A DNA stretch of 64,000 nt, from positions 32,001 through 96,000 of IMG/VR virus record IMGVR_UViG_3300050821_009780. One strand, 5' to 3'. Both the position numbers and the translations under genes were made by a program. This DNA is from a virus. The notes under the pieces are model-generated. The model did no database searches. It saw only the letters and a list, made by a program, of their open reading frames with translations, and was not told the DNA's origin. Position 1 is the stretch's first letter; each line of letters begins with the position of its first letter. This document shows positions 31,958-49,022 of the stretch, one piece after another.

Positions 31958-32009
31958 GGGCTGCTTCTCCCCTTTTTCCTGTTCCGGAGCCTTCCCCCGG
32001 ACGTCTCTG

Positions 32010-32902: not shown

Positions 32903-33324
32903 CTCTTCACCGGCTTCCCCCGGGCGCTGCGCACCCTGGCAATCTTCTCGATGGCACCGCACGCCGCGTCGGACGGGTACTCAAGCTCCGCCTGCCCGTG
33001 GTCGGCGGCCTCGGCCCCGGAGGAGAACAGCGGCACCGGGGCCTCGTAGTCCAGTACCGAGGCGTCCAGCTCGTGCAGGTGCAGCCGGACCGCGAGCAGG
33101 TCGTCCGACAGGCTGCGGTGCCCGGCCCAGCCGGCGCACAGCTGCCCGTCCGCCTGGTGGCACATGAACAGCATGTGCCCCCCGGCGCGCATCTGATCCA
33201 GGATGTCGCCATCGTAAGCGCGCAGCTTCTCGTACTCCTCGTGCGACCAGACGCCGGACGGCACGTCCCGGCGGTACGGGCAGAACGCACACGGCTTCGG
33301 CCGCACCTCGGTCTTCTCTGTCAT
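32899..33324 (-). CDS. DUF6283-like Cys-rich protein
   Basis: PCAFCPYRRDVPSGVW..EY.KL..YD..F.CH..LCAGW. Confidence 0.75.
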   Translation of the reverse strand: MTEKTEVRPKPCAFCPYRRDVPSGVWSHEEYEKLRAYDGDILDQMRAGGHMLFMCHQADGQLCAGWAGHRSLSDDLLAVRLHLHELDASVLDYEAPVPLFSSGAEAADHGQAELEYPSDAACGAIEKIARVRSARGKPVKR

Positions 33325-33497
33325 GACCAGCTCCCCTGGCACCGTTCCTCTTCGCTGCCCTCGTGGTAGGCGAGGGACCGTACCTCGTGCAGTATTTCCC
33401 GGATCTCCCTGCGGCGCTCGGCCTCGTCCGGGATGCACTCCGCGACCATGACCCGGGCCAGCGCCTCGTCCACGGTCAGGCCGTAGCGGCTAGGCAC
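33321..33497 (-). CDS. Hypothetical protein
   Basis: Overlap-coupled small ORF. Confidence 0.5.
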   Translation of the reverse strand: MPSRYGLTVDEALARVMVAECIPDEAERRREIREILHEVRSLAYHEGSEEERCQGSWS

Positions 33498-33636
33498 CGC
33501 GCTGCCCGGAGCCGCCGCACTGCCGTCCGGCGCTGACCCCGTCCTTGACCTGGTGCTTGCGGAGCTTGCCATCCTTGGTCAGCGCCTGCGTGCGCCCGCA
33601 GTACGGGCACTTGGCGCGCGGCAGCTTATGCGCCAT
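33490..33636 (-). CDS. Small zinc-finger-like peptide (48 aa, not in ORF track)
   Basis: CPYCGR..L.KDG.LRKH..C.GSG. Confidence 0.65.
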   Translation of the reverse strand: MAHKLPRAKCPYCGRTQALTKDGKLRKHQVKDGVSAGRQCGGSGQRGA

Positions 33637-33838
33637 GGCTCCCTGCCTCCCCGAGCGCCCTGCGCCCGGCTTCCGTCAGCTGGTAGCGGTAACTAGTCTG
33701 GTCAGCCGGCTCAACCAGGCCCTTTTCTGCCAGTCTCCAGACCTGCGGCACGATGCTCGCCGCGTCCCAGATGTACGGCCCCTGCTCGTAGCTGCGCAGC
33801 AGCTCCAGCTCGCCCTTGGTCAGCTCCACGGCACTCAC
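33626..33838 (-). CDS. Small winged-helix-like protein
   Basis: L..KGLV..YQLTEAGRRAL. Confidence 0.6.
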   Translation of the reverse strand: MSAVELTKGELELLRSYEQGPYIWDAASIVPQVWRLAEKGLVEPADQTSYRYQLTEAGRRALGEAGSHGA

Positions 33839-34341
33839 CACCCGGCCTTTTCCAGCAGTGTCAGCCACATGCCGAGCGAGACCCGGTGCCTGTCGTCCAT
33901 GACGACCTCCGCCTTGACCCACAGGCGGTCGCGGACATCCTGCCACGTCTGCTCGGCGGCCTCGTCAAGCTGCTTGCGGACTGCTGCCGCAGCAACCTCG
34001 GTATCCCACTTCGCTGGGCTGTACCAGAGCACCGCAGCGGAGAACCGCCTGGCCCCGTCGGGGGCGCACTCGCCCTTGCCAGCCTTGCGAAGGGCACCCT
34101 CCTGCGTCAGCAGACGGAGCACCCGCCCGACCCTGGCCTGGAAAGCCTTCTGCCGATCCGCTCCCTCCCACCGCCAGCCCGGCTTGACGCCGAGGCTCTC
34201 GTCGCTGTACACGTCGGCACCCAGCTCCTTGGCCACCGCGACGGCGGTCTCCCAGGTGCCCTCGGTCCGGCCCTTGGCCAGGACGTACTTCAGTGCCTCC
34301 GCCTTCAGCTGCTCGACGGTCAGATCCCTGAGCTTGTTCAT
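33835..34341 (-). CDS. Hypothetical protein
   Basis: SD GGGAG; 168 aa. Confidence 0.7.
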   Translation of the reverse strand: MNKLRDLTVEQLKAEALKYVLAKGRTEGTWETAVAVAKELGADVYSDESLGVKPGWRWEGADRQKAFQARVGRVLRLLTQEGALRKAGKGECAPDGARRFSAAVLWYSPAKWDTEVAAAAVRKQLDEAAEQTWQDVRDRLWVKAEVVMDDRHRVSLGMWLTLLEKAGW

Positions 34342-34348
34342 GTCTCCC

Positions 34349-34603
34349 TCAGCACTCCATTAGCCAGTGACGGCGCGTCTCCGGAAGCCTGTCGCACGGA
34401 CCGGGCTGCGGCTCGCCGGTGGCGAACACCGGGTCGCTGCTGCACTGCCATTCCGACGAGATCCCGGTGGGGGAGACGGCGTTGACCGCCGCCTCCACCG
34501 CATCCGCGTCCATGTCCGCCGAGGCGCAGACGCTGCAGACGACCAGCCCTGTCGCGTAGACCACGACCTCGCGCTCGCCTGCGTCGGCAACCTCCCTGCT
34601 CAT
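34349..34603 (-). CDS. Hypothetical Cys-containing protein
   Basis: CSVC..PTGISS.W..P.PC....RH.L..C. Confidence 0.7.
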   Translation of the reverse strand: MSREVADAGEREVVVYATGLVVCSVCASADMDADAVEAAVNAVSPTGISSEWQCSSDPVFATGEPQPGPCDRLPETRRHWLMEC

Positions 34604-35418
34604 ACTGTTGCCTCCACGTCCGCCCAGTGCAGCGACAGCTCGTTGCCGAGCGCGCTGAGCTTCTGCCGGGTGCCGCACATGGGGCACACGCCCGTCTCCT
34701 GGTACCCGTTGTCCGGGACGGACAGCTCGGTGCTGCCCTCGACGGGGGCTACCCACGAACCCTCGCAGGCCCCGGTGCCGTCCAGGTAGCTGCCGGGAGC
34801 GGGCTGCGCGGCAGGCGACTTCTTCGGCTGCTGCTTGGCGGACGCCTGCTTGCGCGGCTTGCGGGCGCGCTGCTTCTTCGGGTAGCCGGGCGGGAAGACC
34901 TTCTCCGGCCCTGCCTCGGGGTAGGGGGACGGGTTGGGCACGCCGCAGTCCTTGCACTTCCTGCTCTTCTCCGGCCACCAGTGGCCCCACCGGCGGCACG
35001 CCTCGATGCCGGTCGGCCAGACGCTGCCGTACTTGCTGTCGTAGAGGCTGGTCCCGTCGCCGGCGGCGAGGAGGTCGTCCCACACCTTGTGGTAGGCGGT
35101 CACCAGGCCGCTGCGCAGCACCGGGTCCTTCAGGCCGTGCTGCTCGCTGGCCGCAGCGTTCTTGAAGTTGGTGTAATCGAGGCCCAGCACGATGCGCGCC
35201 ATGGCCCGGGCCACATCCTCGGGGCGGGCGTACGCCCGCCAGCTGTAGTCCGCCTTGCCATCCGCGAACATGTTCTCGCCCAGCTCGGGGCAGTAAACCC
35301 GGAAGCTGTCCAGCCACTCGACCCGGCGGGCACGCACCTGCAGGGTCCTGTCGTCGTTCTCATCAACCTTGGTGCGCTGGACGATGCTCAGCGCCCCGTC
35401 CGGAAGCATTACCCACAT
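34600..35418 (-). CDS. Hypothetical phage protein with C-terminal Zn motifs
   Basis: MW..G.LSIV..VRAR..ADY.WR..DY.NFK; SD AAGGAG. Confidence 0.8.
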   Translation of the reverse strand: MWVMLPDGALSIVQRTKVDENDDRTLQVRARRVEWLDSFRVYCPELGENMFADGKADYSWRAYARPEDVARAMARIVLGLDYTNFKNAAASEQHGLKDPVLRSGLVTAYHKVWDDLLAAGDGTSLYDSKYGSVWPTGIEACRRWGHWWPEKSRKCKDCGVPNPSPYPEAGPEKVFPPGYPKKQRARKPRKQASAKQQPKKSPAAQPAPGSYLDGTGACEGSWVAPVEGSTELSVPDNGYQETGVCPMCGTRQKLSALGNELSLHWADVEATV

Positions 35419-35456
35419 AACCTGGCTCCTTCGCTCCGCCTTCCCGGCGGTGCCTA

Positions 35457-35502
35457 CTTGGCTTATACCAAGAGTATAGGACTAGACTTGGCTCAAGTCA
35501 AG
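35457..35502 (-). promoter_or_regulatory. Sigma70-type promoter with two palindromic operators
   Basis: TTGACT-N17-TATACT; operators at 35487-35502 and 35457-35472. Confidence 0.85.
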
Positions 35503-35823
35503 TCCTAGCTCCTGCTGGAGCACGAACACGGCCACATCGTGCTTCCACGCCTTGTACACGACAGTGCCGCAGCGGTCAGGCGGGAAGGGGTACTTGTCCA
35601 GCGCGGCCTGGACGACCCACCGGAACGCCTGAGCTGTGTCGGACAGGCCGATAGCCTCGGCGGCCTGGCAGAACGCCGTCAACTTCGCCTCGACCACGGC
35701 ATATGCCTTCAGGTTCGTGTTGTAGGAAAAGCTGCGTCGGTCGCGCTCAGCACCGGCAGCTCTGGCTATCAAGGTAGCCAGCTCTTCAAGTCCCACCGTC
35801 AAGGCAGGAGTTTCTTTGCTCAT
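35482..35823 (-). CDS. Hypothetical protein, probably leaderless
   Basis: ATG 35823 is 7 nt after the -10 TAATCT; lower GC. Confidence 0.65.
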   Translation of the reverse strand: MSKETPALTVGLEELATLIARAAGAERDRRSFSYNTNLKAYAVVEAKLTAFCQAAEAIGLSDTAQAFRWVVQAALDKYPFPPDRCGTVVYKAWKHDVAVFVLQQELGLDLSQV

Positions 35824-35830
35824 GCCAAGA

Positions 35831-35860
35831 AGATTACTTATCCGCTTGGCTTGAGTCAAG
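35831..35860 (-). promoter_or_regulatory. Sigma70-type promoter with palindromic operator
   Basis: TTGACT-N17-TAATCT; CTTGACTCAAGCCAAG. Confidence 0.85.
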
Positions 35861-36148
35861 TCCGTGGCTGACGGCCTTCTCCCTTACGTGCCAGAGAGCG
35901 GCGTGCGCGTCGTACCCGTCCGGGACGTCCTCAACGGTCCACCGGCCGTTGTACGGCAGCCGCTCCGCCAGGCGCCCGCCGTGCTGCGGCCAGGTCGGCT
36001 GGCTGCCCTTATCCAGCAGCTGACCCTCCACTCCCGGCGGCACTCCCTGCGGGATACGAGCCATATCAGGCCACTGACCTGCCTTCAGCGGCAGCGTCGC
36101 GGCGAACGCCGGACCATGGTACGGGCTGTGCCAGACGGCGACCTTCAC
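35834..36148 (-). CDS. Hypothetical protein
   Basis: GTG after GAGGAGG; GTGA overlap. Confidence 0.65.
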   Translation of the reverse strand: MKVAVWHSPYHGPAFAATLPLKAGQWPDMARIPQGVPPGVEGQLLDKGSQPTWPQHGGRLAERLPYNGRWTVEDVPDGYDAHAALWHVREKAVSHGLDSSQADK

Positions 36149-36558
36149 CCGTCCTCCTCGTCGCCGCGGAAGACCCGGCCCTCGGCGGACAACCGCAGCG
36201 ACTCCTGCCGATCCTTCGCCAGCGCCTTCGCCTGGGCGGGGGAGACGTTGCCGCTGCACACCATATCCATGTACCGGTGCGCCGGGGTCTCCCCGCCCAG
36301 GTCCAGGGTCAGCTTCAGCAGCGCGCAGGGCTGCTCCTGCACCAGCGCGCAGGCGGTGACCGCGCCGGAGAAGCTGCGGCCCTCGGAGGGGCTGTCGAAG
36401 AACACCACCGGGTCGATGCCGCGCAGCCGGACGACCTCCGGCCGGGGCACCGGGAGCGTGTGGGCCTGCGGGCTGTCGGCGGACGTGACGATGCAGCCGT
36501 GCGGGAACAGGCGGTCGAACATCGCCTGGTACTTGCGGGCCTGCTCGGGAGGTTCCAT
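36145..36558 (-). CDS. Hypothetical protein
   Basis: TGATG-coupled to the giant gene. Confidence 0.7.
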   Translation of the reverse strand: MEPPEQARKYQAMFDRLFPHGCIVTSADSPQAHTLPVPRPEVVRLRGIDPVVFFDSPSEGRSFSGAVTACALVQEQPCALLKLTLDLGGETPAHRYMDMVCSGNVSPAQAKALAKDRQESLRLSAEGRVFRGDEEDG

Positions 36559-39500
36559 CAGAACGGCGGACCTTCCCCTCCAGAAACAGCAGCATCCTTG
36601 GCTTCCTGAAGGGTATCGAAGGTACCGAGGTACTCAGTGCCATCGTAGGTCATGTAGCCCCCGTACGTGGCCTTCTCGACCTGCAGATCGCCGTTCTTCC
36701 AGGTGGGGTACGCCTCGCCGCCGCCCTTCACCCAGTTGAGGTCGGTGATCTGGCCGAGCAGCTCGCTGACCGTCGGCGGTGCGGCACCCGTCTCCTGGGC
36801 GGCCTGCTGCGCGGCGGCCTGGCCGGACTCGGCGGCCTGGGCGGACGGCTCGGTGGCCCCGGTGTACACCTGGGACTCGGCGAGCGGGTCGAGCAGCTCG
36901 GGGTGCGCGGCGAGGTTGGCCTTGACCTTGTCCACGGACGCCTTGCCGATGTGCTGGACAATCCTATCCTCGACGGGCAGGTAACGGATCTCGGTGATGC
37001 CGTGGTTCTTGAGGTAGGCGATGAGCTCGGCCCGGTCTTCCGCGTAGGACGACTGGACCAGCTCCACGTCGTCGAGCAGGGACAGCGCGTCGGAGATCAT
37101 GGTCTCGTTGCTGCCGCCGCTGTACTTGCGCCACACGTCCGGGTTCCAGTGGGCGTCCTTGCGCCGGTAGACGCCCTCGGCGCTGTACCCGCCCTCGCTG
37201 TACGGTATCTGGTTGCCGAAGTAGTCGTTGTCGTAGGAGTAGTTCCGGGTCCGGGCCAGGGTCAGCGGGCTGAACACGGCGGCGCGGTTATCGGTCACGT
37301 TGAGCCGGGTGAACACGTAGCCGGGGCCGCCGGACTCGTACGGGTTGCCGAGGCCGCCGGCCTCCGTCCCGGCCACCCGGATGAGGGCATCCTTGCCGTA
37401 TGACCCGCCTGCCTTGACGATGTAGGACGCAGCACTGCCGCTGCTGGACTGCCTGATGGGCATGGGCAGGCTCTTGACCTTCGCGGCCAGGTCGAACCGG
37501 TACCAGTCGGGCTTGCCGCCGACAACCGCCGGAGCGGTAGGGTCGAAGTGCTTCTGCCGGGGGAAGAAGCCGCCGCGCTCGGCCCAGTCCGCCACCTGCG
37601 CGGGGGAGGTCAGGGTGGCGAACGCGTCGCGGTACGCCCGCACCTCGGCCTGCGGGTCGGCCTTGCCCAGCGTCTCCAGTGCAGCGATGATCTTCCGGTG
37701 CTCGTTCTTGCCCGGCTTGGCGCCGCCGACAACCGGGTACGCCGTGCCCAGCCTCTCCTGCAGCACCTTCCACACCGGCTGGTCCTTGCTGTCCGCCCGA
37801 TCGTTCATGACGGACAGCAGGTGCCGCCAGTAGAACAGCTCGAAGTCGGGCACCTCGGCCTCGCGCATGTCCAGTCCGGCGAGCTGCAGGGCGGCGCGGA
37901 CGCGCTCCAGCGACGCGGCGCTGCCGTCCTTGCTGGTGAACCGGACGCGGCCCCAGTGGGAGACCTTGACGCCGGTGTCCTGGCCGTCGCCGAACTCGAT
38001 CTGCTCCCCGTCCGGCAGGGTCATCCGCCAGAACTTGCCGGGGTCCTGGTGCGCGCTGGTGTAGCTACCTGGGTTGAACTCGCCGGTGGTCTCGTCGATG
38101 CTGCCCTTGTCGTGCTTGGAGGCGGTGCCGGCCTGCAGCTTGATGCCGAGCGCGGACAGCTCATCCTTGACCTCGGGCTTGGGGGTGCTCTTCGGCAGCC
38201 AGCGGGGCAGATCGCCCTCGCCGAACCCGAACGAGCCTGCCTTGGCGTCCAGCACAGCCGCGATGTGCGACAGGTAGGTCTGGGCCATGTCGAGCAGGTT
38301 GCGGGACTGCTGAACCCCTGGGTCGGTGCTATCCGGGTGGGCACCGACCACGGCTTCTGCCGCCTGCTGCACCAGCTGCAGCTTCTGCTGCACCTCGGCC
38401 ATGGCGTCGAGCTTTCCCTGGTTGTACTGCCCGTCGGTCTTGTGCATGGTGACGCTGCGGGCCGCCGTGATGATCGTGTTGTAGTAGTTCTTTTCCCCGG
38501 CGAGGCCGCCGCGGTCGGGCGAATCGTACGGGGCCTTGCCGGGGCCGTAGCTGTCAGCCGGGTAGCTCACGGTGGTGTCGTCGGCGGGCGCGGCGTCCTT
38601 GCCGCTGTGGCTCTTGAGCCAGCCGATGACCTTGTCGTAGGCGGTGCCCTTGAGGAACGTCTCCCCGTGGGTGACCTTGGCTCCCTGGCCGTCGTTCTGC
38701 TGCCAGAGCAGCACGTGCATATCGCGCAGCTCGGGGCCGCCGAAGAACGCGGGGACGCCGTGGCTCTTGGCGGCGGCGACGTGGTCCAGCAGGCCCGGCT
38801 CGCTGAACCCGGAGTGCAGCGGGGCGCCGTGCGCGTCGGGGAGCCGCTGGACCGGGACCTCGGGCAGCCCGGTGACGCTGCCCTGCTTCAGCACCGGCTT
38901 GTCCGGGGGCAGCGCCTGCCATGCCTTGAGCGCGGCATCCAGGATCGCCTGGTCGCGGGCGGCGACGGTCTTGCTCTCGCTCTGCGCGAGGAGCTGCTTC
39001 GCCTCCTCCAGTGCCACCCATTTCGTCTGCTCGGTCTCCCCGTTGTCCAGCTCCGGGGTAGCGACCGCGCCCTCGGCCTTGGCCAGATAGAAGTAGGAGG
39101 TGGACTGGGTGCCGGTGAAGGCACCGGGCACGTAGCCGACCGGCTGGTACCTGGCGCCCATCTCCTCGGCGGTCTCCCGCACGGCGGCCTGCAGGGAGGT
39201 CTCGCCCGGATCGGCCCCGCCCTTGGAGAAGCTCCACGCGGTGCTGTTGTAGTGGTTCTTGACCTCGCGCAGCTGCACCTGGCCCTGATCGTTGAACACC
39301 ACCAGGCCGTAGCGGGGGTTGTGCCCGGGGGCATCGCCCCACGGGCTGCTCTTGCCGAAGTCGGAGGAGGCCCCGGCGTACCCGGCGTCCTGGTAGACCT
39401 GCGCCCACAGCTTGGTGAAGTCGTCTGCGAGGCTGTTCTTGCGGCGCAGCACCTCGTCGATGAGCGCCTGCCTGGACCCGAGGGAGCCGAACTTGGTGCG

Positions 39501-42500
39501 GTGCGCGAAGCCCTGCTCCAGGATGTTCTGCACGCTGGCGTCGGACACGTTCTGAATCTTGCGCGCCTGCTGGATGACCTGGAGGAACGCCTGGTCGGCA
39601 GCGTCCTTGGTGACCTGGTGGTTGCGGATGCCGTCGTACAGCCGGGTGTAGACGAGCTGGGTCATGGTGTCCATGGCGCTGGTGCCGGCCAGGCCGGGCC
39701 AGTCCATGTTGCCCCAGGCGCGGCCCTTGTCGATGCCGGCGATGTGCCCGTCCGGCGTCTTGATCATGTTGTTGGCGGAGCTGTCATCGTTGGACAGCAC
39801 CCAGTCGAGCAGGTGCTCGGACGCGATGTCGGCGACCTGCGCGGGGGTGAACGCGGACCAGGGCGGCAGGTCGGTGTAGTAGCCGAGCGGCTCGCCGGGG
39901 ATGGCCTTCTGCGCCTGCACCGGGCTGCCGCCGAACGCGGGGTCGGTCAGCAGCTGGGACTCGGCGGTCCGGAACCCGAACAGCTTGCCGAGCCGGTTGG
40001 CGGCGTGCTCCTGCTCCAGCCGGAACAGCCCGCCCCCGGCGCTGCTGGAGGGAGGCGCTGGCTTGACGTACCAGGTGCTGGTCTCCCCGGTGTAGGGGAT
40101 GGTCCTGGTGGCCTTCCACACCTCGTGCCCGTGGCTGGGCATATCCCCCGTGGGGATCTTCTTCCACACCGGGACGGACTGCTCGGCGACGGCCTTGACG
40201 TGCTCGTTATCGAGCCACTTCTGGATCGCCTGCTTCTTGTAGAAGGTGTAGTCCAGGACGTAGGCGAGGGTGTTGCCCATCTCGTCGGCGAGCTGCTGGA
40301 GGTAGGGGGTGACCTCGGCCTCGTGGTCGTCGGCGAACGCCTGCACAGCGGTCTCGGACCACTCGTCGGCGGGGGTGCTCGCCTGCACGTACGCGTCGTA
40401 GGCGTTGGCTGGCTGGAGGCCGTCGGTCCAGACGGGCGGCTCGGTCTTGGGAGACTGGCCCTGGCCGAACCGGTCGTTCGCGGTGCCGGTGAGCTGGTCC
40501 ACCGCAGCCTGGTCGTGGCCGCGGTGCGCCTTGACGACCATCTCCCGCTCGTAGGGGTACAGGTGCTCGGCGTGCTGGAAGCCCATTTTGATCAGGTAGT
40601 TGGCGACCTCTGCGGCGGGAAGGTTGGCCAGCCCGGCGGAGGACCAGGTGCCGGGGATGTCCTGGCTGGCCGGGACCTGGTGCGGGTCGAGCGGGGACCA
40701 GGTGACCTGGTGGGTTTCCGTGTTGTCCGGGGCTCCGGGGTGGGCGGGGGAGACCTTGCCGCCCTTGGCGTCCAGCTCGAAGACAGCCTTCATGTCCCCG
40801 GCCTTCCACGCCTTGGCCCACAGCAGGAGATCGTAAGCCGACAGTGAGGACAGGTGCGTGCCGACCACCTGGCCCTTGCCGAACTGCTGGGAAATGTCCT
40901 TGATCTTGGCGATGGTCTCAGTCTTGGTGCCGAGCATCCCCGAGTCGGGGAGGAACCCGGTGTAGGGCTGCGCCCAGCCCTGCGGGGTGAAGGTGAAGAT
41001 GTCCTTGGCAGAGGTGACGCCCTCCGGCATGGTCTTCAGGAAAACGGGGCCTTCGGACTTCTCTGCCTTGGCCGCCTTAGCCGGGACTGCGCCTGGTTCG
41101 ACCTTGCTGACCTCCGCGCCCTCCGGCAGTCCGGGCACGGCGAGCAGCTCGGTCAGCAGCCCGGTGACTGCGGCCTTCTGCTTGTCCCCGGTATCCCCCT
41201 GGTGGTCGGCCATGAACTGCTTGCCGAAGCCCTTGTAGCTGTTCCACTTGACGAAATCGTCCCCTGCCAGGAACTTCTGGAACTCCGGGACGAACTGCAG
41301 TCCCGGGCTGTTGTTCAGCGTGTCGAGCAGCGCCTGAATCTCGTCCCTGGTCTTGATATCGCTGCCCCAGATGTGGTAGCCCGTCGGCTTGGTCCCCGGC
41401 TCGACGACGGTGGTGCCATACTTGTCGAGTACGGTCCCGGACTGCATGAGCGCGTCTACCGTGTAGTCCGGGACGACATTCGGGGCGGCCCCGTCGTTGG
41501 ACTTCCACTGGGCGCTGCCATCGCTGAAGACGACAAGCTCCCCCGCTGTTTCCGGAGCCTTCCCGGCGCCGCTCCACAGTTTGAGGTCACTGGCAGGAGC
41601 CAGCACGGTGGCGTAGGCGACCTGGTCCGGGGGCTGCCCCGCCTGCGGGAACGGGACGCTTGAGTACTGGGTGGCCTTCTCCAGCTGCTTCGCGGCGGCG
41701 GCCGGAGTCAGCTCCTTGCTGCTGCCGTCGGTGGCGAAGTAGATGTACTTGCCCCACGCCTTGGTGCCGTACTTCCAGAAGTCGGAGTTGTAGCCGCCGA
41801 CCTTGACGGGCTGCACGTGCAGGTAGGACTTGCCCTTGGGGTTCTTCCAGTACCCGGCCCCGAACAGCTTGCCGTCCACGTTGACGGCGGCGGGCACGAC
41901 GTTCGCCTTGACCGCCTGCAGCAGCTGGTCCTGCAGCTCGGGCGACGGGGCCGCCAGGTCCCCGCCCTGCGGGTGGTAGGACACCTCCAGGGTCAGCGGG
42001 TTGACCTTGTAGTACTCGTCGGTGCTGCTCTGCAGGTACCCGCCGTGCCAGTTGCCGTACTCGTGCGAGATGTACTCGGTATCGCTGCCCTGGCTGCCCT
42101 TCTCGGCCAGCTTGTAGGCGGCGGCGAGCAGCCAGGTCGGGAAGAGCTTTTCGCTGCCGTGCTCGCTTATCGCCTGCCCGGCGGTCATGGCCCCGAACGA
42201 GACGGTCTTCAACGCGTCGGCGACCTCCTTGCCGTGCGCAGCCTCCTCGACGGACGGCGGCTCCTTCGGCGTCAGGGAACTACCGTTCAGGTCCTTATCG
42301 CTGACGTAGTACGACGGAGCCTTCTTGACCTGAGTGTTACCGCTGTAGCTCTGGATGTACCACCACTGACCGGACGGGTCGCGGGCATAGGCGCCACCGT
42401 AGGGTCCGGTCTTCTCGTAGACCACCGAGCCGGGCGGGAACTCCCCGACCAGCACCCCGCCCTTGAGGGCGGGCACGGGAGACTCGGCGGGCTTGTACGA

Positions 42501-44951
42501 CGGCTCGTCTGCCGGGATAGGGACCGGAGACCCTCCTGGCCCGAGTCCGGGTGCCTCCGGCTCCGGAGCAGCAGGCGGCTCCTCGGCGGGCTTGACGCCC
42601 TGCTTCAGGTAGAGCAGCACCGACTCCGGCTCGCGCGGGAACAAGGTGCCGCCCGGGGCGTGCATGAGCACCCGGTGGTCCGGGGTGACCTCGTAGAACA
42701 GCTCGCCGGGGGCACCGAGGGTGCCCTCAGTCGGCTTGGAGGTGGTGGTCTCCCAGCTGCCGGCGTCGTTCTTGTAGAGGTACTGCTTAGTATCCAGCGC
42801 GCTGGTGTAGACCAGCAGCCGGGCCAGGTGCTGGGCCAGGGTCGTCGCCTCGTGCGGGTTGTAGAGATCTGTCGGCTGAAGGTCGGTCAGCTTCTCGTCG
42901 ATCTCCTTCCACTGCGGGTTCTTCTTCCACTGCGCCGCCGTCGCCCAGTCCGGCAGCCGGGCGGCGGCGGACGGCTCGGGGGCCTGCTCCGCAGCGGCCT
43001 GGGACTTATCCTGCGCGGCCTCGGTCCCGCCCTGCGGCTCCAGCCAGATGTGCACAGCATTCCACAGCAGCGTGTCGGCGCTGGTCGGCTCGCCGCCGAA
43101 CATGTCGTGGTAAGTGGCCTTCAGCTGCGGGGTGACCTTGTAGTACGGCACACCATCTGGAGCAACCGGCTGGACTCCGAACTGGCCCGCCACGGGCGTC
43201 GTATAGTAGTCCTGGCCGAAGTCCGCGGCGTTCTGCGCGGCCTTGGCCATGGCACCATACGCAGTGCTGTACCAGCTCTTCTTGATGTTGCCGTTCTTGG
43301 CCAGGTCGTACAGCTCGGCGGCCTCGGTGTGCCCGGTGGCGTCGTCGGCCTTGGCGAGCAGCCCGGCCTTCTCGGTCAGCGCGGCGATGAACACCGTCTT
43401 GGCGTAGCCGAAGTGCTGCTGCTTGGTGCCCTTCTGCTGCGGCAGGTGCTCGGTATCGGGGTGCTGGTCCTCGTAGGCGTGGATGACGGCCCAGTAGTCG
43501 GACTCGGCGAGGGGGTTGCCCTTGGCCTTGAGCACCTGCTTGATCGCGGTGGACTTGGCGGCGGTCAGCGCGTCCACCGCATCCTGCACCTGCTCGGCGG
43601 TGGCGGTGACCCCGCCCAGCTCGAAGGTGTGCGGGGTGAGTAGCTGAGCGTGCTCCGCCTCGGCCTGCACCTTGTCCTGGGCGGCCTGCAGCGCATCCTG
43701 CTCGGCCTCGGTGTGCGCCAGGTGCGCGGCCCGCCCGGCCAGGTGGTGGATGACCGCCGACTTGACCTGCCCGACGTGCTCCTTCTTAGTGCCGGGAGCG
43801 ACCTTCAGCTCGGGGTGCTTGCTCAGTTCCTGCTGAGCTACCTGGTGGTAGTCCATCGCTGCCAGCGCGTGGCCGGCCTTGGCGAGGGGCTGCTTGACGG
43901 CGGTGGACTTGTCGTCCTGGAGGATTTTCAGGGCATGCTGGATCTCGTCCTTGGTGACGGCGAGCGGCGGGCCCTCCTTAGCAGCAACCTCGGCCTTAAG
44001 CTTGCCGGGCTGGCTCTCGCCAGGGACGGGCAGCGGCGCGTGCTGCTCCGCCTGGTCGTCGTCCGGGACAATGGCACCAGCCTTGAGCCAGGCGTCCTGA
44101 TGCTGCTCGGCTGGCTCCTTAACCACCTCGCCGCTGTGGAGCACAAGGTGCCAGGCACCTTGCGGGTCCTTAGCCCACTTGCCGTGCAGGTTCTTATCAT
44201 CCGCGTTGACTGCCTTGTAGACCTTCCAGTCAGCGGGTACCCAGGCGGCGTGCTTGCCGTTAAAGCTGACCGATTTCTGCGGCGGTGCCTCGTCCAGCTT
44301 CTTCCAGTGCTGGGCGAGGATCTCCTGAGCGGTCTTAGCGGTCGGCAGGGCCGACGAATCGGCCGGGTGGTCCGAGTGGAACAGGACGTGCTCGGCAGGC
44401 TTGCCGTCCTGATCCTTCTTGACGATAACCTTGGGCGCGGCCTTGACCGCCGCCGGGTTGTGCACGTCGGTGCTGTTCGGCACGTGCACATCGAGGTCCT
44501 TGTGCACGGCGAACTCGTGGTTGCCGGACTGGACCCACTTGTGGGTGCCGGCCTCGACCGCCTGGTGCGCGTCCTTGTCGGCCTTATCCGGGTCCTTCCA
44601 CTGGTTGGCGACCCACTTGGCCTCGGAGGTGTCGTAGATGAAGTGCGACGGAGCGCCCTTGACGTAGTGGGCGGTGCCGCCGTGCGCCTCGGAGGGAGCG
44701 TGCTGCGGGTGCGGGATGATCAAGCTGCCGATGGGGGCCTTGTAGAACGCCTCGCCGAGAGCGGAGGCGACCTTCTTCGGCGGCCCGTGCTGCCCCTGCA
44801 GCCCGGCAGCCTTCTGCGCGGCATCTTGGGCAGCCTCGGTGGTGGCTGCGGCCTGCTGGGCGATGGTGGCCCCGGGCAGCGCCGCAGCGGCGGGGTTGCC
44901 TGCCAGGTAAAGCAGCCCGAGCGTCAGGGCCTGCTGCTTCGTGAGGGCCAC
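36558..44951 (-). CDS. 2797-aa multidomain protein: PI3/4-kinase/HipA-like domain, Nudix hydrolase, possible ART-like C-terminus
   Basis: WYVKP..EQEHAANRL..DWVLSNDDSSANN..IDKG; exact Nudix box GGADPGETSLQAAVRETAEEMG; GGPGYVFTR..SNETM; SD GAGGGGAG. Confidence 0.85.
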   Translation of the reverse strand: MALTKQQALTLGLLYLAGNPAAAALPGATIAQQAAATTEAAQDAAQKAAGLQGQHGPPKKVASALGEAFYKAPIGSLIIPHPQHAPSEAHGGTAHYVKGAPSHFIYDTSEAKWVANQWKDPDKADKDAHQAVEAGTHKWVQSGNHEFAVHKDLDVHVPNSTDVHNPAAVKAAPKVIVKKDQDGKPAEHVLFHSDHPADSSALPTAKTAQEILAQHWKKLDEAPPQKSVSFNGKHAAWVPADWKVYKAVNADDKNLHGKWAKDPQGAWHLVLHSGEVVKEPAEQHQDAWLKAGAIVPDDDQAEQHAPLPVPGESQPGKLKAEVAAKEGPPLAVTKDEIQHALKILQDDKSTAVKQPLAKAGHALAAMDYHQVAQQELSKHPELKVAPGTKKEHVGQVKSAVIHHLAGRAAHLAHTEAEQDALQAAQDKVQAEAEHAQLLTPHTFELGGVTATAEQVQDAVDALTAAKSTAIKQVLKAKGNPLAESDYWAVIHAYEDQHPDTEHLPQQKGTKQQHFGYAKTVFIAALTEKAGLLAKADDATGHTEAAELYDLAKNGNIKKSWYSTAYGAMAKAAQNAADFGQDYYTTPVAGQFGVQPVAPDGVPYYKVTPQLKATYHDMFGGEPTSADTLLWNAVHIWLEPQGGTEAAQDKSQAAAEQAPEPSAAARLPDWATAAQWKKNPQWKEIDEKLTDLQPTDLYNPHEATTLAQHLARLLVYTSALDTKQYLYKNDAGSWETTTSKPTEGTLGAPGELFYEVTPDHRVLMHAPGGTLFPREPESVLLYLKQGVKPAEEPPAAPEPEAPGLGPGGSPVPIPADEPSYKPAESPVPALKGGVLVGEFPPGSVVYEKTGPYGGAYARDPSGQWWYIQSYSGNTQVKKAPSYYVSDKDLNGSSLTPKEPPSVEEAAHGKEVADALKTVSFGAMTAGQAISEHGSEKLFPTWLLAAAYKLAEKGSQGSDTEYISHEYGNWHGGYLQSSTDEYYKVNPLTLEVSYHPQGGDLAAPSPELQDQLLQAVKANVVPAAVNVDGKLFGAGYWKNPKGKSYLHVQPVKVGGYNSDFWKYGTKAWGKYIYFATDGSSKELTPAAAAKQLEKATQYSSVPFPQAGQPPDQVAYATVLAPASDLKLWSGAGKAPETAGELVVFSDGSAQWKSNDGAAPNVVPDYTVDALMQSGTVLDKYGTTVVEPGTKPTGYHIWGSDIKTRDEIQALLDTLNNSPGLQFVPEFQKFLAGDDFVKWNSYKGFGKQFMADHQGDTGDKQKAAVTGLLTELLAVPGLPEGAEVSKVEPGAVPAKAAKAEKSEGPVFLKTMPEGVTSAKDIFTFTPQGWAQPYTGFLPDSGMLGTKTETIAKIKDISQQFGKGQVVGTHLSSLSAYDLLLWAKAWKAGDMKAVFELDAKGGKVSPAHPGAPDNTETHQVTWSPLDPHQVPASQDIPGTWSSAGLANLPAAEVANYLIKMGFQHAEHLYPYEREMVVKAHRGHDQAAVDQLTGTANDRFGQGQSPKTEPPVWTDGLQPANAYDAYVQASTPADEWSETAVQAFADDHEAEVTPYLQQLADEMGNTLAYVLDYTFYKKQAIQKWLDNEHVKAVAEQSVPVWKKIPTGDMPSHGHEVWKATRTIPYTGETSTWYVKPAPPSSSAGGGLFRLEQEHAANRLGKLFGFRTAESQLLTDPAFGGSPVQAQKAIPGEPLGYYTDLPPWSAFTPAQVADIASEHLLDWVLSNDDSSANNMIKTPDGHIAGIDKGRAWGNMDWPGLAGTSAMDTMTQLVYTRLYDGIRNHQVTKDAADQAFLQVIQQARKIQNVSDASVQNILEQGFAHRTKFGSLGSRQALIDEVLRRKNSLADDFTKLWAQVYQDAGYAGASSDFGKSSPWGDAPGHNPRYGLVVFNDQGQVQLREVKNHYNSTAWSFSKGGADPGETSLQAAVRETAEEMGARYQPVGYVPGAFTGTQSTSYFYLAKAEGAVATPELDNGETEQTKWVALEEAKQLLAQSESKTVAARDQAILDAALKAWQALPPDKPVLKQGSVTGLPEVPVQRLPDAHGAPLHSGFSEPGLLDHVAAAKSHGVPAFFGGPELRDMHVLLWQQNDGQGAKVTHGETFLKGTAYDKVIGWLKSHSGKDAAPADDTTVSYPADSYGPGKAPYDSPDRGGLAGEKNYYNTIITAARSVTMHKTDGQYNQGKLDAMAEVQQKLQLVQQAAEAVVGAHPDSTDPGVQQSRNLLDMAQTYLSHIAAVLDAKAGSFGFGEGDLPRWLPKSTPKPEVKDELSALGIKLQAGTASKHDKGSIDETTGEFNPGSYTSAHQDPGKFWRMTLPDGEQIEFGDGQDTGVKVSHWGRVRFTSKDGSAASLERVRAALQLAGLDMREAEVPDFELFYWRHLLSVMNDRADSKDQPVWKVLQERLGTAYPVVGGAKPGKNEHRKIIAALETLGKADPQAEVRAYRDAFATLTSPAQVADWAERGGFFPRQKHFDPTAPAVVGGKPDWYRFDLAAKVKSLPMPIRQSSSGSAASYIVKAGGSYGKDALIRVAGTEAGGLGNPYESGGPGYVFTRLNVTDNRAAVFSPLTLARTRNYSYDNDYFGNQIPYSEGGYSAEGVYRRKDAHWNPDVWRKYSGGSNETMISDALSLLDDVELVQSSYAEDRAELIAYLKNHGITEIRYLPVEDRIVQHIGKASVDKVKANLAAHPELLDPLAESQVYTGATEPSAQAAESGQAAAQQAAQETGAAPPTVSELLGQITDLNWVKGGGEAYPTWKNGDLQVEKATYGGYMTYDGTEYLGTFDTLQEAKDAAVSGGEGPPF

Positions 44952-44961: not shown

Positions 44962-45180
44962 TCACTCGTCCGACAGGTACAGCCCGGGCACCTTCTCCAG
45001 CAGCCGGGTCACCATCTCAAGATCGGGGCCGGTGACGGTCAGGCCCTCGCGGTGCAGCTGCTCCAGCGAATCAGGCCCGAAGTCGAACTCCGCCTGGCTG
45101 CCGCGACCGTACTCGGCCAGCGCAATGAACGCGTTCGCGTAAGAGACGGTGCTCGCGGCACGGTACCGGACGGTGGTCAC
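44962..45180 (-). CDS. Hypothetical protein
   Basis: 72 aa; GTGA-coupled to MuF. Confidence 0.65.
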   Translation of the reverse strand: MTTVRYRAASTVSYANAFIALAEYGRGSQAEFDFGPDSLEQLHREGLTVTGPDLEMVTRLLEKVPGLYLSDE

Positions 45181-46187
45181 GTCCCTAGTACCTTCCGCAG
45201 CCGGGACAGTGCCTGACCCAGCTCGTGGGTGGCGGCCTTGAGGAAGTGCAGCAGCGCCTGGTACTTGTCCTCGGGCAACTCCCGGACATCGGAGGCGGCC
45301 AGGAGGCTGCCGGAACCTGGCCGGTCCGGGCTACCTGAGACTTTCTGATGGGGAGCAGCAGCAGTCTTGGCGCCCCCCTGGCCGCTCCCTGATGGTACCT
45401 GCCCGGCCTGGGGCGGAGGAAGATCAGCGACAATCACTGCGCCGCACCGGCACCGGGGATGCCGGGGCGGGCCGCGCAGCACGCCGTGGTAGAGCCGGGG
45501 CGGGCGGGTGAGCCGCCCGTGCCCGGCCAGGTCGGCCGGCTCCCCGGCCGGGAAGTTGCCGTGCAGCGGGACGACCATGCCGTTCAGGGCCCGGCACCAG
45601 TGGCAGGTGCGGGCATCGGGCGGCGCGGGCCAGGAACTGCACCGCCACTGCTTCCACACCCGCTCCCCGGACTCCTCGCGCAGGGTGCCGTCGGCGATCT
45701 CCTTCTCGGTGCGAGCGGCGACGGCAGCGGACTCCAGGGACAGCCGGTTGCGGAGCGCCAGCTCGAAGCCGACCTGGAGGACGGCAGCCCGGACGTGCGC
45801 GGCGCGCTCGCGGGCGGACTCGGCGACCGGGGCCTGGCGGGGCGGGGTGACGCCCGCCCGGAAGTGCCGGGTTTCCACCGAGGTGTGAGCGGCCCGGATC
45901 TCCGCCCGCAGGCGGCCGAGCGCATCATAGGAGCGGTCCACGTCGTCCACCAGCCAGGACAGGTAGTCGTGCGGTGGCCCCCCGGCGGCAGCCCACGCCT
46001 GGCGCACCGCCTCGGCAGCGGTCTCCCGGGCGCGATCGAGGGTCTCCTGGAGCACCGCGTCCACGTCCGGGCGGGTCAGCAGGGCGGAAGCGGACCCCTG
46101 CGGGTTGTTCTGCACCAGCAGCCCGATATACCGGGCGGCGTAGGCGAACGCCTCACGGACGCTGCGGCTCAGCTCCTCCGGGGTCAC
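45177..46187 (-). CDS. MuF/SPP1 gp7-like minor head protein
   Basis: KQW..DARTCHWCRALNG..PPRHPRCRC. Confidence 0.85.
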   Translation of the reverse strand: MTPEELSRSVREAFAYAARYIGLLVQNNPQGSASALLTRPDVDAVLQETLDRARETAAEAVRQAWAAAGGPPHDYLSWLVDDVDRSYDALGRLRAEIRAAHTSVETRHFRAGVTPPRQAPVAESARERAAHVRAAVLQVGFELALRNRLSLESAAVAARTEKEIADGTLREESGERVWKQWRCSSWPAPPDARTCHWCRALNGMVVPLHGNFPAGEPADLAGHGRLTRPPRLYHGVLRGPPRHPRCRCGAVIVADLPPPQAGQVPSGSGQGGAKTAAAPHQKVSGSPDRPGSGSLLAASDVRELPEDKYQALLHFLKAATHELGQALSRLRKVLGT

Positions 46188-46476
46188 GCTGCGGATGATC
46201 GCCCGACGCCGCCTCGTAGGCGGCGTGCAGCTGCTCGTACTGCCGATAGTCCACCCGCCCGGAGTGGAAGGCGCTGTTCACCTCGCCGAAGCTGCCCGGC
46301 GGCGGCAGCTCGCCCAGCTGCCCGATGGCATCGGCGAGCCTGGTCTGGAAGGCGGTCTTGCCGGCGGCGCGGGGCCAGTTCATGCCGCGGACCTGGGCGC
46401 AGGCTTCGGCGAGGCTGATGCGCCCGTTCTCCAGGTCGTCGAGCAGCGCGGACAGCCGCTTCTCCTGATCGCTCAC
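46153..46476 (-). CDS. Small helical protein coupled to the zeta-like gene
   Basis: GTG 46476 overlaps the upstream TGA. Confidence 0.65.
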   Translation of the reverse strand: MSDQEKRLSALLDDLENGRISLAEACAQVRGMNWPRAAGKTAFQTRLADAIGQLGELPPPGSFGEVNSAFHSGRVDYRQYEQLHAAYEAASGDHPQRDPGGAEPQRP

Positions 46477-49022
46477 GGTGCCCCCGGAGACTCGATGCCG
46501 GCCACCACCATGGCCGCCTTCCATGCATCCTCGCTGAACCCCGGCTCCGTGCTGGCCTGCTCGCGGACAGCATCCAGATCCAGGTCGTCCATCCCCGTGC
46601 CGGCGGTCATAGCTACCTGCCCCTTCTCCGCTGCCCGGGCCTGCGCCTCGGTAGCCCCTACGTACTCCATGATGTGGTAGTCCGGGTGATCGAACTTCTC
46701 CGTGTTCCAATCCGGTGCGGCCAGCGCCGGGTCGAACGGGAAGACCTGCTTGTCCCGGAACCCGAGCGACGCGTACAGCTTGGGCAGCACGGGACCGTAC
46801 GCCTCGATGTAGTTCGCCCCGTGCTCACTGACGGCCAGCCTGAGCAGCGCCAGCCCGGTGCCCTTATCCCCGGAGGTGTTGAACAGCCCGGTCGGCTCGA
46901 TGCGCCCATCCTTGTGGTCGTGGATGAGTATCCCGGCCTTCCCGCCGGCTGCGAGGATAGCTGTCATGCCCGCGTTCCTGATGTCCGCTGCGGTGTAGTG
47001 GTTGACGAAGGCACTGTACGGGCTGCCCTCGAATGCCTTGTTGAGCGTGCTCGCGAACTCCTCGGGGCTGGCCAGCCGAGTGCCGGGCGGCCCCGACCCG
47101 GCGGCGCGGGCTGCCTCCTGCGCCCGGGCCTCCTTGCTGCCGGGCTGCAGCGTGCGCAGCAGCGCCTCCACCGACGGGATGCCGGCGGGCACGGACGGCG
47201 CGGACTTCTCCGCCAGCCTGGGCGCGGTCCCGTTGTTGTCCCAGAGCTGCCAGTCGGCGAACCGGGACTTCAGCGCCTCGAAGACGAGCTTGTTGCGGGT
47301 GATGCCGCGGACGACCTCCTGGGAGCGGATCAAGTCGGGCGGCACGTACCGGCCGCCGAGCGGATCGCGTCCCTCCCGGTAGGCTTCCAGGCCCTGCCGG
47401 TAGCGCTTAGCGGCGCGCTGCACGGCCCGTTCCACCGGGCTATCCACGAACACGCCGCGAGTGGTGTACCCGTGCTGCTCCAGGGCAGCGAGGCGCTGGG
47501 AGACGCTGGCCTCGTCGGCCATGGTGATATCCCAGGCGATGTTCTTGCCGCGCTCGGCCAGCAGCCGGGCGGCCTGGTCGGCCAGGTAGGACGACTCGTC
47601 GTGCACCAGCGGGGAGGCTTCCAGCGGGGACAGCCCGGCGACCTCGGGGACCAGCCCGCGCCGGGCCAGCTCGGCCTTGAAGTCGTCGGGGTTGACGACG
47701 GCGTAGTCGCGCAGGCTGATGTCCGGGATCTGCTTGAGCACGGTGGTCTTGCCGGCCCCGCCGAGCCCGCCCATGACCAGCGCCCGGTGCTCGGACGGCA
47801 CGGATACCTGCCTGGCCAGGAAGTCCTGGAGGATCTGCTGGTGCTCCAGGGCGCGCTGCGGCAGCCAGGAGTAGCCGCCGTCGCGGGAGTGCAGCACGGA
47901 GGTGGCCTGGCCCTTGCCGGCGGCGGCGTTGACCTTCTCCTGCACGTCGCGGGCGTGCACGGCGTACTGCTCGTCGGTGAGCGGCGCGTACTGGCCGGGG
48001 GCGGCCTGCCCGGCGGCAGCGGCACGGGCGGCGGCCTGCGCGGCGCGGGCGCCGGACTCGGCCTTGCGCAGCTCCCCGAGGTGGTCGCGGAGATCGGACT
48101 GCCGCTGGCTCTCCTCGCGCTGGGCGTAGCCTTCCAGCCGCCGGTTGGCCTGATCCAGCGCGGAGTCCTGGGGAGAGGGTGCCTGCTGCGGCAGCGGCTG
48201 CGGCACGTGCGCGTGCGCGTGCCGGCTGAGGGTGTCCCCGGCCAGCGGGGTGACGAACCGGGAGCCGAGGTGCGGGTGGACCGCCTGCGCGCCCGTGGGG
48301 GGCGGCGGCAGCTTAGGCGGCTCGGGCTGCACGGCCGGGTGCTGCGGGCCCTCCTGAAGCCGCTCCGCCGCGCGGGCGGCCCGTTCGGGGACGGCCCCGG
48401 TGAGGCGGCGGGTGCGGGTGGACCTGACCCCGGACTGCTTGTCGATGTCCCGCATCCGGGACTGGACGTGGGAGATGCTATCGCGGACAGACTGCTTCTG
48501 CTGGTCGGTCTCCGCACGGGGCAGCAGCTGCTCGGCGGCGGTCCGGTGCGCCTCGTGCAGCTGCTCGTAGCCCTTGGCCAGAGCGGGACTATCCGGGTCG
48601 GACAGGTGCTGGTGGGCGGCGTCCACGTGCCCGGCGAACTTCTCAGCAGACGGCTTGTCGATATCGTGGAAGCGCTGGCTGCCCCACAGCGCCTGGCCCT
48701 TCTTCGCCCACGCCTGCTGCGCGGCCAGCCACTTGGCCTGGCTGGTGTCGTCGATGACGTGGCCGGGGGCACCCTGGACGAAGTGCGGGTCGTGGCCGCC
48801 GGGGTGCGGCAGGTCGCTGCGCAGCTCGGTGTGCGCCTTGACGTGCTCGGGGATGACCTTGCCCTGCTTGGTCTTCTGCAGCCGGGAGAACGGCCGGACC
48901 TGGAAGCTGGCCAGCTCCAGCGCCTCCGGGTCGGCGGCCAGCTCCAGCGCCCGCCCGGCGCTGATCTCCTCGACCAGATCGCGGGCCAGCGCGGCCAGGG
49001 CCTCCTCGGCGGGACTGGTCAC
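46473..49022 (-). CDS. Zeta-toxin-family P-loop kinase with a C-terminal GNAT-like domain
   Basis: MGGLGGAGKTT, VNPDDFK, VHDESS, WDITM, QRA..R, GGRYVP, WDN; then GLFN..GTG..LL..AV..GA..EAY..LPKLY..LGF. Confidence 0.88.
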   Translation of the reverse strand: MTSPAEEALAALARDLVEEISAGRALELAADPEALELASFQVRPFSRLQKTKQGKVIPEHVKAHTELRSDLPHPGGHDPHFVQGAPGHVIDDTSQAKWLAAQQAWAKKGQALWGSQRFHDIDKPSAEKFAGHVDAAHQHLSDPDSPALAKGYEQLHEAHRTAAEQLLPRAETDQQKQSVRDSISHVQSRMRDIDKQSGVRSTRTRRLTGAVPERAARAAERLQEGPQHPAVQPEPPKLPPPPTGAQAVHPHLGSRFVTPLAGDTLSRHAHAHVPQPLPQQAPSPQDSALDQANRRLEGYAQREESQRQSDLRDHLGELRKAESGARAAQAAARAAAAGQAAPGQYAPLTDEQYAVHARDVQEKVNAAAGKGQATSVLHSRDGGYSWLPQRALEHQQILQDFLARQVSVPSEHRALVMGGLGGAGKTTVLKQIPDISLRDYAVVNPDDFKAELARRGLVPEVAGLSPLEASPLVHDESSYLADQAARLLAERGKNIAWDITMADEASVSQRLAALEQHGYTTRGVFVDSPVERAVQRAAKRYRQGLEAYREGRDPLGGRYVPPDLIRSQEVVRGITRNKLVFEALKSRFADWQLWDNNGTAPRLAEKSAPSVPAGIPSVEALLRTLQPGSKEARAQEAARAAGSGPPGTRLASPEEFASTLNKAFEGSPYSAFVNHYTAADIRNAGMTAILAAGGKAGILIHDHKDGRIEPTGLFNTSGDKGTGLALLRLAVSEHGANYIEAYGPVLPKLYASLGFRDKQVFPFDPALAAPDWNTEKFDHPDYHIMEYVGATEAQARAAEKGQVAMTAGTGMDDLDLDAVREQASTEPGFSEDAWKAAMVVAGIESPGAP

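Follow-up and report, generated by a model that had tools for sequence, protein, structure and literature searches.

The 64,000-nucleotide (nt) stretch of DNA analysed here, referred to as the window, comprises bases 32001-96000 of IMG/VR virus record IMGVR_UViG_3300050821_009780, a phage genome represented by a single contig of 143,503 bp with a G+C content of about 69% and a CheckV rating of 100% complete. Within a module of head genes on its minus strand lies a gene of 2797 codons without an internal stop, whose product is called P0001 below. The gene starts with GTG, 4 nt after a Shine-Dalgarno sequence (GGGGAG) that directly follows the stop codon of a 72-amino-acid (aa) gene, and its own stop codon shares bases with the start codon (ATG) of a 137-aa gene in the sequence TGATG. 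Its third-position G+C content (GC3) of 0.92 matches that of the other minus-strand genes of the window. Together with the existence of homologues, these features bear out the open reading frame (ORF) that had been proposed in a first-pass annotation of the same DNA, and the gene is genuine and tightly set within an operon. A high-G+C artefact is ruled out by the GC3 value, by 31 collinear homologues and by the high-confidence folds predicted for parts of the protein.

The minus-strand gene order runs from a weakly terminase-like gene through genes for a Mu-type portal protein, an 849-aa zeta protein, a MuF-like protein and the 72-aa protein to the giant gene, and continues 3' of it with several small genes, a 377-aa protein, the HDPD decoration protein and major capsid protein E. 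The giant gene had been placed downstream of portal and MuF genes, and this placement holds, with a clear portal match and a weak MuF match on the same strand. The features of the giant protein and of its neighbourhood are collected in Table 1.

Table 1. Features of P0001 and of the surrounding head module (window coordinates; L002 and L003 are loci used for comparison).
Feature	Coordinates	Strand	Residues or size	Basis or remark
Giant gene (P0001)	36558-44951	-	2797 aa	Open frame, GC3, Shine-Dalgarno sequence and start, collinear relatives
N-terminal leader	44592-44951	-	aa 1-120	'LGLLYLAG', then 'KKVASALGEAFYKAPIGSLIIPH', then 'HYVKGAPSHFIYDTSEAKWVANQWK'
Duplicated KSTA..KQ..L..DY..GTK..H.G..K unit (about 95 aa)	43317-43964	-	aa 330-421 and 448-544	
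Three [YF]Y[KE]V[TN]P...H..GG modules	41952-43274	-	aa 603, 752 and 980	Motif scan
Domain X	40185-40934	-	aa 1340-1589	Most conserved stretch of the protein
Atypical protein-kinase-like domain	39372-40184	-	aa ~1589-1860	PI4K/CtkA/HipA type
Nudix hydrolase insert	38865-39368	-	aa 1862-2029	PF00293; PHROG Nudix families
Core linker	37560-38864	-	aa 2030-2464	Alpha/beta unit followed by a long helical bundle, a beta unit and a helical unit
Probable ADP-ribosyltransferase-fold domain, DarT-like	36912-37559	-	aa ~2465-2680	Structure matches and conserved residues
Mu-type portal protein	49128-50744	-		PF06074 (Portal_Mu), E 1e-31
Zeta-toxin-domain protein	46473-49022	-	849 aa	PF06414, E 1.6e-18; N-terminal motif in common with the giant protein
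MuF-like minor head protein	45177-46187	-		PF04233, 28.2 bits, just below cut-off; several PHROG head-morphogenesis families
72-aa partner gene	44962-45180	-	72 aa	Conserved between MuF and giant gene
137-aa gene, translationally coupled to giant gene	36145-36558	-	137 aa	TGATG overlap; 34% identity to L003 gene in equivalent position
Probable protease/scaffold	29830-30963	-	377 aa	Assigned from position alone, on the model of L002 and L003
Head decoration protein (HDPD)	29215-29799	-		PF02924, E 2e-12
Major capsid protein E	27857-29014	-		PF03864, E 1.6e-22

P0001 belongs to a family that is both large and almost unannotated. A word-indexed search recovered 31 full-length relatives (2067-3608 aa, all metagenomic), which are collinear with P0001 over almost the full length, the Nudix segment excepted. 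A profile of the core (aa 1340-2700 minus the Nudix segment) was then searched against 1.84 billion cluster representatives and matched 2018 proteins at E <= 1e-3, 391 of them at E <= 1e-30. Many of these matches are about 1250-1350 aa long and comprise nothing but the core (about 1150 aa), in others the core makes up the C-terminal part of giants of 2300-4200 aa, and none of the ten that were looked up has a name. Megablast of the giant gene against 50,697 phage records gave no match, and tblastn gave only a weak match to the kinase domain. When P0001 was submitted to Pfam in seven pieces, NUDIX alone was returned, with no polyvalent-protein-associated domain among the matches.

The core opens with domain X. 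Within a 523-aa alignment (A1), 42 columns are invariant and most of them fall in this domain, among them H1366, D1394, GKVSP1398-1402, HPGAP1404-1408, N1410 and TH1413-1414. Domain X is modelled with predicted local distance difference test (pLDDT) values of 79-97, and a feature search of a protein atlas with aa 1340-1590 gave no usable match.

The segment that follows resembles atypical protein kinases. An AlphaFold2 model of aa 1340-1862, built on a 32-sequence alignment, has a pLDDT of 90.5, and Foldseek returned kinases throughout (CtkA at E 3e-5, Vps34, actin-fragmin kinase, HipA and RIO2). Kinase motifs had been reported at about positions 39420-40120, and K1630, E1648, D1723-x4-N1728 and I-D1741-K-G do lie in that range (nt ~39730-40064). 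They are conserved beyond chance: among 158 diverse relatives, K1630 is kept in 143, E1648 in 135, D1723 in 144, N1728 in 139 and D1741 in 148. The family profile aligns with PI4KB such that NDD..N falls on DRH..N and IDKG on IDFG, the corresponding PDB profile match being sub-threshold. Apart from this match, PDB phmmer and profile searches with alignments A1, A2, A4 and A8 recovered only Nudix proteins. Compared with PI4KIIalpha, Helicobacter CtkA, actin-fragmin kinase, Legionella MavQ and HipA, the domain has 11-14% identity, and its catalytic loop reads N-D-D-S-S-A-N-N in place of D-R-H-x-x-N. Kinase domains of the relatives match HipA_C in 52 of 118 cases (best 1.1e-7) and PI3_PI4_kinase in 43 of 118 (best 5.8e-7); the hidden Markov models (HMMs) of these two Pfam families do not match P0001 itself, which is not counted as a member of either. 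A bilobal kinase fold is strongly supported, the earlier kinase call is thus right, and the domain is a divergent relative of the PI3/4K-HipA-CtkA group. A pseudokinase subclade is also present in the family (P0018, P0022, P0024 and P0026-P0032), in which the lysine, the D-x4-N motif and the aspartate of DxG are lost while the fold and the ART-like residues (see below) are kept.

For the Nudix domain, PF00293 matches aa 1878-1992 with 60.2 bits (cut-off 21.1; E 2.7e-16), and the box GGADPGETSLQAAVRETAEEMGA at aa 1911-1933 (nt 39153-39221) is complete (GX5EX7REUXEEXGU), so that the perfect Nudix box previously reported near 39155-39225 is confirmed. The identity of the domain as a Nudix hydrolase is certain. 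Its nearest solved relatives by sequence (Ndx1, RppH and Ap4A hydrolases) are reached only at E ~4e-6, a similarity too weak to indicate a substrate. The catalytic REx2EE is kept in 11 of 11 Nudix-bearing relatives. Only 11 of the 32 close family members carry the segment (P0001-P0007 and P0009-P0012); the remaining members have just 2-4 residues there, with the flanks abutting, and the Nudix domain is therefore a lineage-specific insert between two conserved modules. Other accessory enzymes vary as well. For example, an ADPrib_exo_Tox domain is found in the N-terminal half of P0020 and P0041, lying in P0020 within the segment equivalent to aa 330-620 that houses the KSTA units of P0001, and 2 of 25 distant N-terminal halves have a Nudix copy of their own. 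Rather than three freely stacked effectors, the protein has an ancient, conserved core formed by the kinase and the ART-like module, into which the Nudix domain was inserted recently. For annotators, this means that a Nudix match in such giants marks an accessory insert and not the function of the protein.

Between the Nudix insert and the C-terminal domain, structure matches of the linker are generic helical bundles only. In the Atlas search, the top row is a 947-aa cluster that bears the name 'phage head morphogenesis protein'; it aligns over 356 residues (model residues 102-646).

The C-terminal domain had been singled out for a block of motifs at about 36950-37470, which is indeed present (YVFTR2549, Y2571, D2576, G2579 and NE2616, all within nt ~36912-37559). 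In 133 diverse domains, R2485 is kept in 131, D2487 in 129, R2525 in 123, R2549 in 123, Y2571 in 122, D2576 in 132, G2579 in 133 and E2616 in 131. The same annotation had tentatively called the domain an ADP-ribosyltransferase (ART). Two structure libraries and protein language-model leads point to a DarT-like fold, and no sequence method agrees. The AlphaFold2 model of aa 2030-2700 has a pLDDT of 87.9. An exhaustive VIA structure search with it gave mostly helical bundles at model residues 116-212, the non-helical exceptions being three structures of DarT, the toxin of DarTG (PDB 8baq, 7omu and 7omv), at model residues 456-643 (aa 2485-2672); together with the DarT cluster described next, these matches span 150-170 residues, most of a DarT chain, and make DarT the best structural match to this part of P0001. 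An ESM-Atlas shape search independently gave a cluster of DarT proteins (98% of them with PF14487; template modelling (TM) score 0.48 over 168 aa) in addition to a 200-aa cluster at TM 0.67, and the language-model neighbours (all below 0.9 and to be taken as leads only) include DarT, PARP, Arr and OspC clusters. Set beside the DarT2 residues (PMC11543638), P0001 has a glutamate at the start of a strand in the model (E2616) with an arginine and a tyrosine upstream, in a DarT2-like spacing of R2549, 22 aa, Y2571, 45 aa and E2616. On the basis of these models, the domain probably has an ART fold.

There is a competing view, less probable in our estimation but deserving serious weight, that the domain is not an ART and that its likeness to DarT reflects a common alpha/beta arrangement serving another activity or a binding role. 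This is favoured by the fact that Foldseek of the aa 2030-2700 model against PDB and BFVD found nothing significant, and by the searches at the level of sequence. The Pfam DarT HMM (PF14487), which finds the DarT of EPEC (enteropathogenic Escherichia coli) at 5e-53, matches nowhere in a six-frame translation of the complete phage genome at E <= 10; hhalign of a 114-sequence alignment of the domain against 20 DarT2 sequences gave a probability of 0.8%; Pfam and PDB profile searches of that alignment found no ART, and neither did a per-member Pfam scan of the 114 domains find an ART family. The Macro (PF01661) and NADAR (PF08719) domains have no match in the phage genome. Membership of the DarT family proper is therefore rejected on HMM, profile-profile and DarG/NADAR partner evidence. 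DarT itself is a bacterial toxin of about 210 aa, whereas the domain in P0001 is embedded in a giant phage protein and lacks sequence similarity to DarT, a clear H of the H-Y-E motif and a genomic DarG/NADAR antitoxin. Against this competing view, the DarT structures and the DarT Atlas cluster are the only matches other than helical bundles, the language-model neighbours are enriched for ART-clan families, and the R2549/Y2571/E2616 spacing fits the ART layout, although this last point is partly interpretative. The single local alignment made by hhalign, not significant in itself, pairs NE2616 with the region of the invariant QAE of DarT. The substrate class is a further matter: modification of host proteins, as had been suggested, is not established, because the closest ART-like fold modifies DNA bases, and the likeness to DarT in the models leaves a nucleic acid target as a real possibility. 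Weak structural and language-model neighbours of aa 2460-2700 also include uncharacterised proteins of about 170-250 aa from giant eukaryotic viruses (IIV-6 422L at probability 0.92, Pithovirus, Tupanvirus and DUF5846 clusters), which may have a small ART-like fold in common with this domain.

The N-terminal half is built differently. The duplicated unit reported near the N-terminus is supported by BLASTP, with which aa 330-421 and 448-544 align at 36% identity (E 3e-12), and the three [YF]Y[KE]V[TN]P modules have no Pfam or PDB sequence match. Transmembrane or hydrophobic segments were not found anywhere in the 2797-aa protein. The leader is conserved across the family, the relatives of P0001 reading 'L.LAG ... 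KHV(A/K)T..G...Y..PIGSLIIPH'. The third leader motif, about 35 aa long, recurs in the zeta protein at an equal distance from the N-terminus (19 of 39 positions identical, E 8e-7; pattern 'H[FY]V.G.P.H......S.AKW.A.Q'), and a consensus leader core, 'V[KR]TPxGxxxYxLPIG', is found in gp17 of Microbacterium phage Magritte as well as in distant giants of the family. Magritte gp17 opens with '..LELAA..RYVRTPEGAEKYGLPIGAPI', like the family leader. We propose that the leader is a capsid-targeting or protease-processing signal. More generally, leaders of the form 'hydrophobic-x-L-A-(A/G)' are seen on several head-region proteins (ALEKVLRLAA twice, GKLLRLAG, ALELAA and LGLLYLAG), with leader-like starts on the minus strand of the window at 44592-44951, 48700-49022, 51270-51318, 55520-55557 and 57160-57199. 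Some of these then carry a basic motif of the V..[YF].R...G..V..H type, and both Magritte gp17 and distant giants of the family begin with the same form of leader. This form may likewise be a capsid-targeting or prohead-protease signal.

Gene order was compared among the window, two metagenomic relatives with enough flanking DNA and Magritte. In the loci of P0014 (2721 aa) and P0050, the latter on a contig of 138 kb, the order is portal, MuF, a 75-aa gene, the family protein, a gene of about 100 aa, a Mu-like protease, HDPD and capsid E. What fills the slot varies, from a 1276-aa form consisting of the core only (P0050) through giants of 2300-4200 aa to Magritte gp17. The slot thus takes varied enzymatic payloads behind a leader with a recurrent core motif. 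All loci examined, Magritte included, have a gene for a protein of 72-75 aa, which belongs to no known family, directly after MuF and before the cargo gene (L002 9712-9939, L003 3529-3756, L004 11787-12014); the 72-aa protein of the window is 42-50% identical to the 75-aa proteins of L002 and L003, and hhalign against Magritte gp16 gave a probability of 56% (E 1e-4). These small proteins could act as an adaptor or chaperone in cargo loading, and a complex prediction with the N-terminal 140 aa of P0001 and its 72-aa partner scored 0.02, which bears neither way.

The protein can be compared with several known systems. The polyvalent proteins of phages and conjugative elements, described by Iyer, Burroughs, Anand, de Souza and Aravind in 2017 (PMC5512222) and in a 2022 NAD/ADPr survey (PMC9503650), are very large, have many domains and are encoded next to head genes. 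They unite ART, kinase, zeta-kinase, Nudix and further enzymes in one chain, and packaging followed by injection is predicted for them. P0001 conforms to this description in having at least two effector-type enzyme domains (kinase-like, Nudix and ART-like) in the head module of a phage. It differs in that the kinase of the polyvalent proteins belongs to a truncated Ser/Thr/Tyr-kinase clade of Verrucomicrobia, Chlamydia and Bacteroidetes phages (PMC5512222), whereas that of P0001 is a full PI4K/CtkA/HipA-like domain, and in that its kinase-like and DarT-like domains form a fixed core instead of a shuffled set. The concept of head-packaged polyvalent effectors with ART, kinase, zeta-kinase and Nudix domains is already known; what is new here is a very large family with a fixed core of a PI4K/CtkA-type kinase and a DarT-like domain, a recognisable slot and a recognisable leader.

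The kinase-like domain alone recurs in minor-capsid fusion proteins of mycobacteriophages that join it to MuF/VG15 and ART domains, for instance prophiFSIL01-1 gp53, McProf gp54 and Onyinye gp16 (24-26% identity, E down to 8e-14). As in P0001 with its probable ART, this kinase is paired with an ART in a head-gene context. The fusions differ in their length of about 1180 aa, in being fused directly to MuF/VG15, in using an ART of the ADPrib_exo_Tox type (R-S-E) and in having no domain X, no Nudix domain and no DarT-like module; they show this kinase joined independently, for a second time, to an ART within a head protein. Magritte (OR553905) is the nearest cultured phage by its portal (48.6% identity). 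Its slot is identical (MuF, 75-aa gene, giant gene, small gene, scaffold and capsid) and its leader motif is alike. An HMM of N-terminal halves from distant giants of the family matches the N-terminal module of its gp17 (1991 aa, hypothetical) at E 1e-60, which marks the two as homologous. This module has no detectable similarity to that of P0001, and gp17 lacks the kinase/ART core and the Nudix domain, giving only a weak GNAT match.

T4 Alt, N4 virion RNA polymerase and P1 DarB are giant or packaged enzymes that are loaded into the capsid by an N-terminal signal and injected with the DNA, and T4 Alt and the T4 internal proteins exemplify capsid-targeted internal proteins. The concept proposed for P0001 is alike, with no homology to it detected. 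A cargo slot in which dissimilar proteins carry a recurrent leader core behaves like these capsid-targeted internal proteins.

Taken together, the explanation that we consider somewhat more likely than not is that P0001 is a capsid-internal polyvalent cargo protein of an actinophage with a Mu-like head and is ejected into the host. The data show the gene, its motifs and domain folds (the ART fold as probable), the conservation of the family and its synteny; packaging, ejection, catalytic activity and substrates are what we infer. The idea of a virion-delivered polyvalent effector was already part of the first-pass annotation. It is strengthened by the fixed slot, the leader and the swappable inserts, with delivery itself still a matter of interpretation. 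According to this model, the giant protein would be loaded into the prohead by its leader together with the MuF protein and the 72-aa partner, whose genes lie immediately upstream. Cleavage might follow after the 'LxLA(G/A)' motif, and the protein would leave the capsid with the DNA upon infection. The core would then act as an active atypical Ser/Thr or small-molecule kinase and an NAD+-dependent DarT-like ART, both modifying host targets, either protein or nucleic acid. The Nudix insert would hydrolyse a nucleoside-diphosphate-X compound, for which general Nudix biochemistry suggests several candidates: free ADP-ribose, defence signals derived from NAD, the 5' ends of RNA, or ADP-ribose adducts, which would be trimmed to phosphoribose. 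The expected outcome would be that host functions or defences are disabled ahead of phage gene expression.

Several results weigh against this explanation. The kinase-like and ART-like core profile is carried by no cultured phage in the searched collection, the kinase domain of P0001 itself (aa 1560-1880; 1600-1857) has no Pfam match, and no HMM or profile search of the C-terminal domain found a link to ARTs. In about 10 of the 32 close relatives the catalytic residues of the kinase are gone, so that kinase activity is not essential to the role of the core. The Pfam match of the MuF-like protein is below cut-off, and the protein is not fused to P0001. The MuF-like gene is a separate one lying two genes upstream, and no MuF domain was found within P0001 by Pfam or PHROG, which sets it apart from MuF-fused toxins. 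Finally, aa 1-1589, about half of the protein, have no fold assignment, leaving room for a mainly structural role.

Such a role, as an inner-body, ejectosome or head-completion protein whose enzyme domains are secondary or degenerate passengers, is in our view unlikely. It would suit the roughly 1590 N-terminal residues, which have repeats and no enzymatic signature, and the fact that the core stays conserved in members without the kinase residues. The location among head genes and the N-terminal module that the enzyme-free Magritte gp17 has in common with distant family giants would suit it too. However, the putative catalytic residues of both core domains are kept in 85-99% of more than 130 diverse sequences, which argues for selection on catalysis; transmembrane and hydrophobic segments are lacking, and core-only forms of 1270 aa occupy the equivalent slot.

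We give similarly little credence to an unpackaged enzyme acting late in the cytoplasm, whether by modifying phage DNA, capsid proteins or host targets or as a superinfection-exclusion toxin. Co-transcription with late head genes fits this equally, the DarT-like fold suggests a DNA substrate, and there is no MuF fusion. The slot after MuF, on the other hand, is strictly conserved across distant phages, the leader motif is found on differently built slot proteins and in part on the zeta protein, and mycobacteriophages carry the kinase-like domain as part of MuF/VG15 fusions. Two further identities, a tape-measure protein and a virion RNA polymerase, are rejected because the gene belongs to the head module, no polymerase fold or motif was seen, and a 3638-aa ORF elsewhere is the better tape-measure candidate.

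A bolder version of the packaged-cargo explanation, and one that we consider improbable as it stands, is that the core is a capsid-delivered DNA-base ADP-ribosyltransferase with an atypical kinase, a phage-side use of DarTG chemistry loaded by a portable leader. If true, it would be the phage-side counterpart of the chemistry that bacteria use against phages in DarTG. Should packaged cargo be the correct explanation in its broader form, the 2018 cluster representatives would constitute a large unannotated head-slot family, without a Pfam or PHROG family apart from Nudix, in which a conserved atypical kinase is paired with a probable NAD+-dependent transferase and a modular cargo slot is marked by a recognisable leader. 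This raises the questions of which host process is hit first in actinobacteria, whether a phage injects a DarT-like enzyme and whether the leader can serve as a portable capsid-loading tag.

Some further observations concern the neighbouring genes. The zeta protein, encoded between portal and MuF, has its Zeta_toxin/AAA_33 domain at aa 413-566, and its position is empty in L002 and Magritte; it is likely a second candidate for packaged cargo. The second giant ORF, of 3638 aa (GC3 0.93), occupies positions 3-9710 of the window on the minus strand and continues to genome positions 30794-41710. It has no Pfam match across its 3236 window-encoded residues and may encode a tape-measure or other tail protein. 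One of the small genes that separate the giant gene from the protease gene (32899-33438, minus strand) encodes a DUF6283 protein (PF19800, E 2.9e-30; phrog_18249). Glycosyltransferase-like genes are also found in or near structural modules, both in the window (16504-17808 and 26497-27552, minus strand) and in compared loci (L002 20746-21879; L004 3310-5335), and may point to glycosylation of the virion or of DNA.

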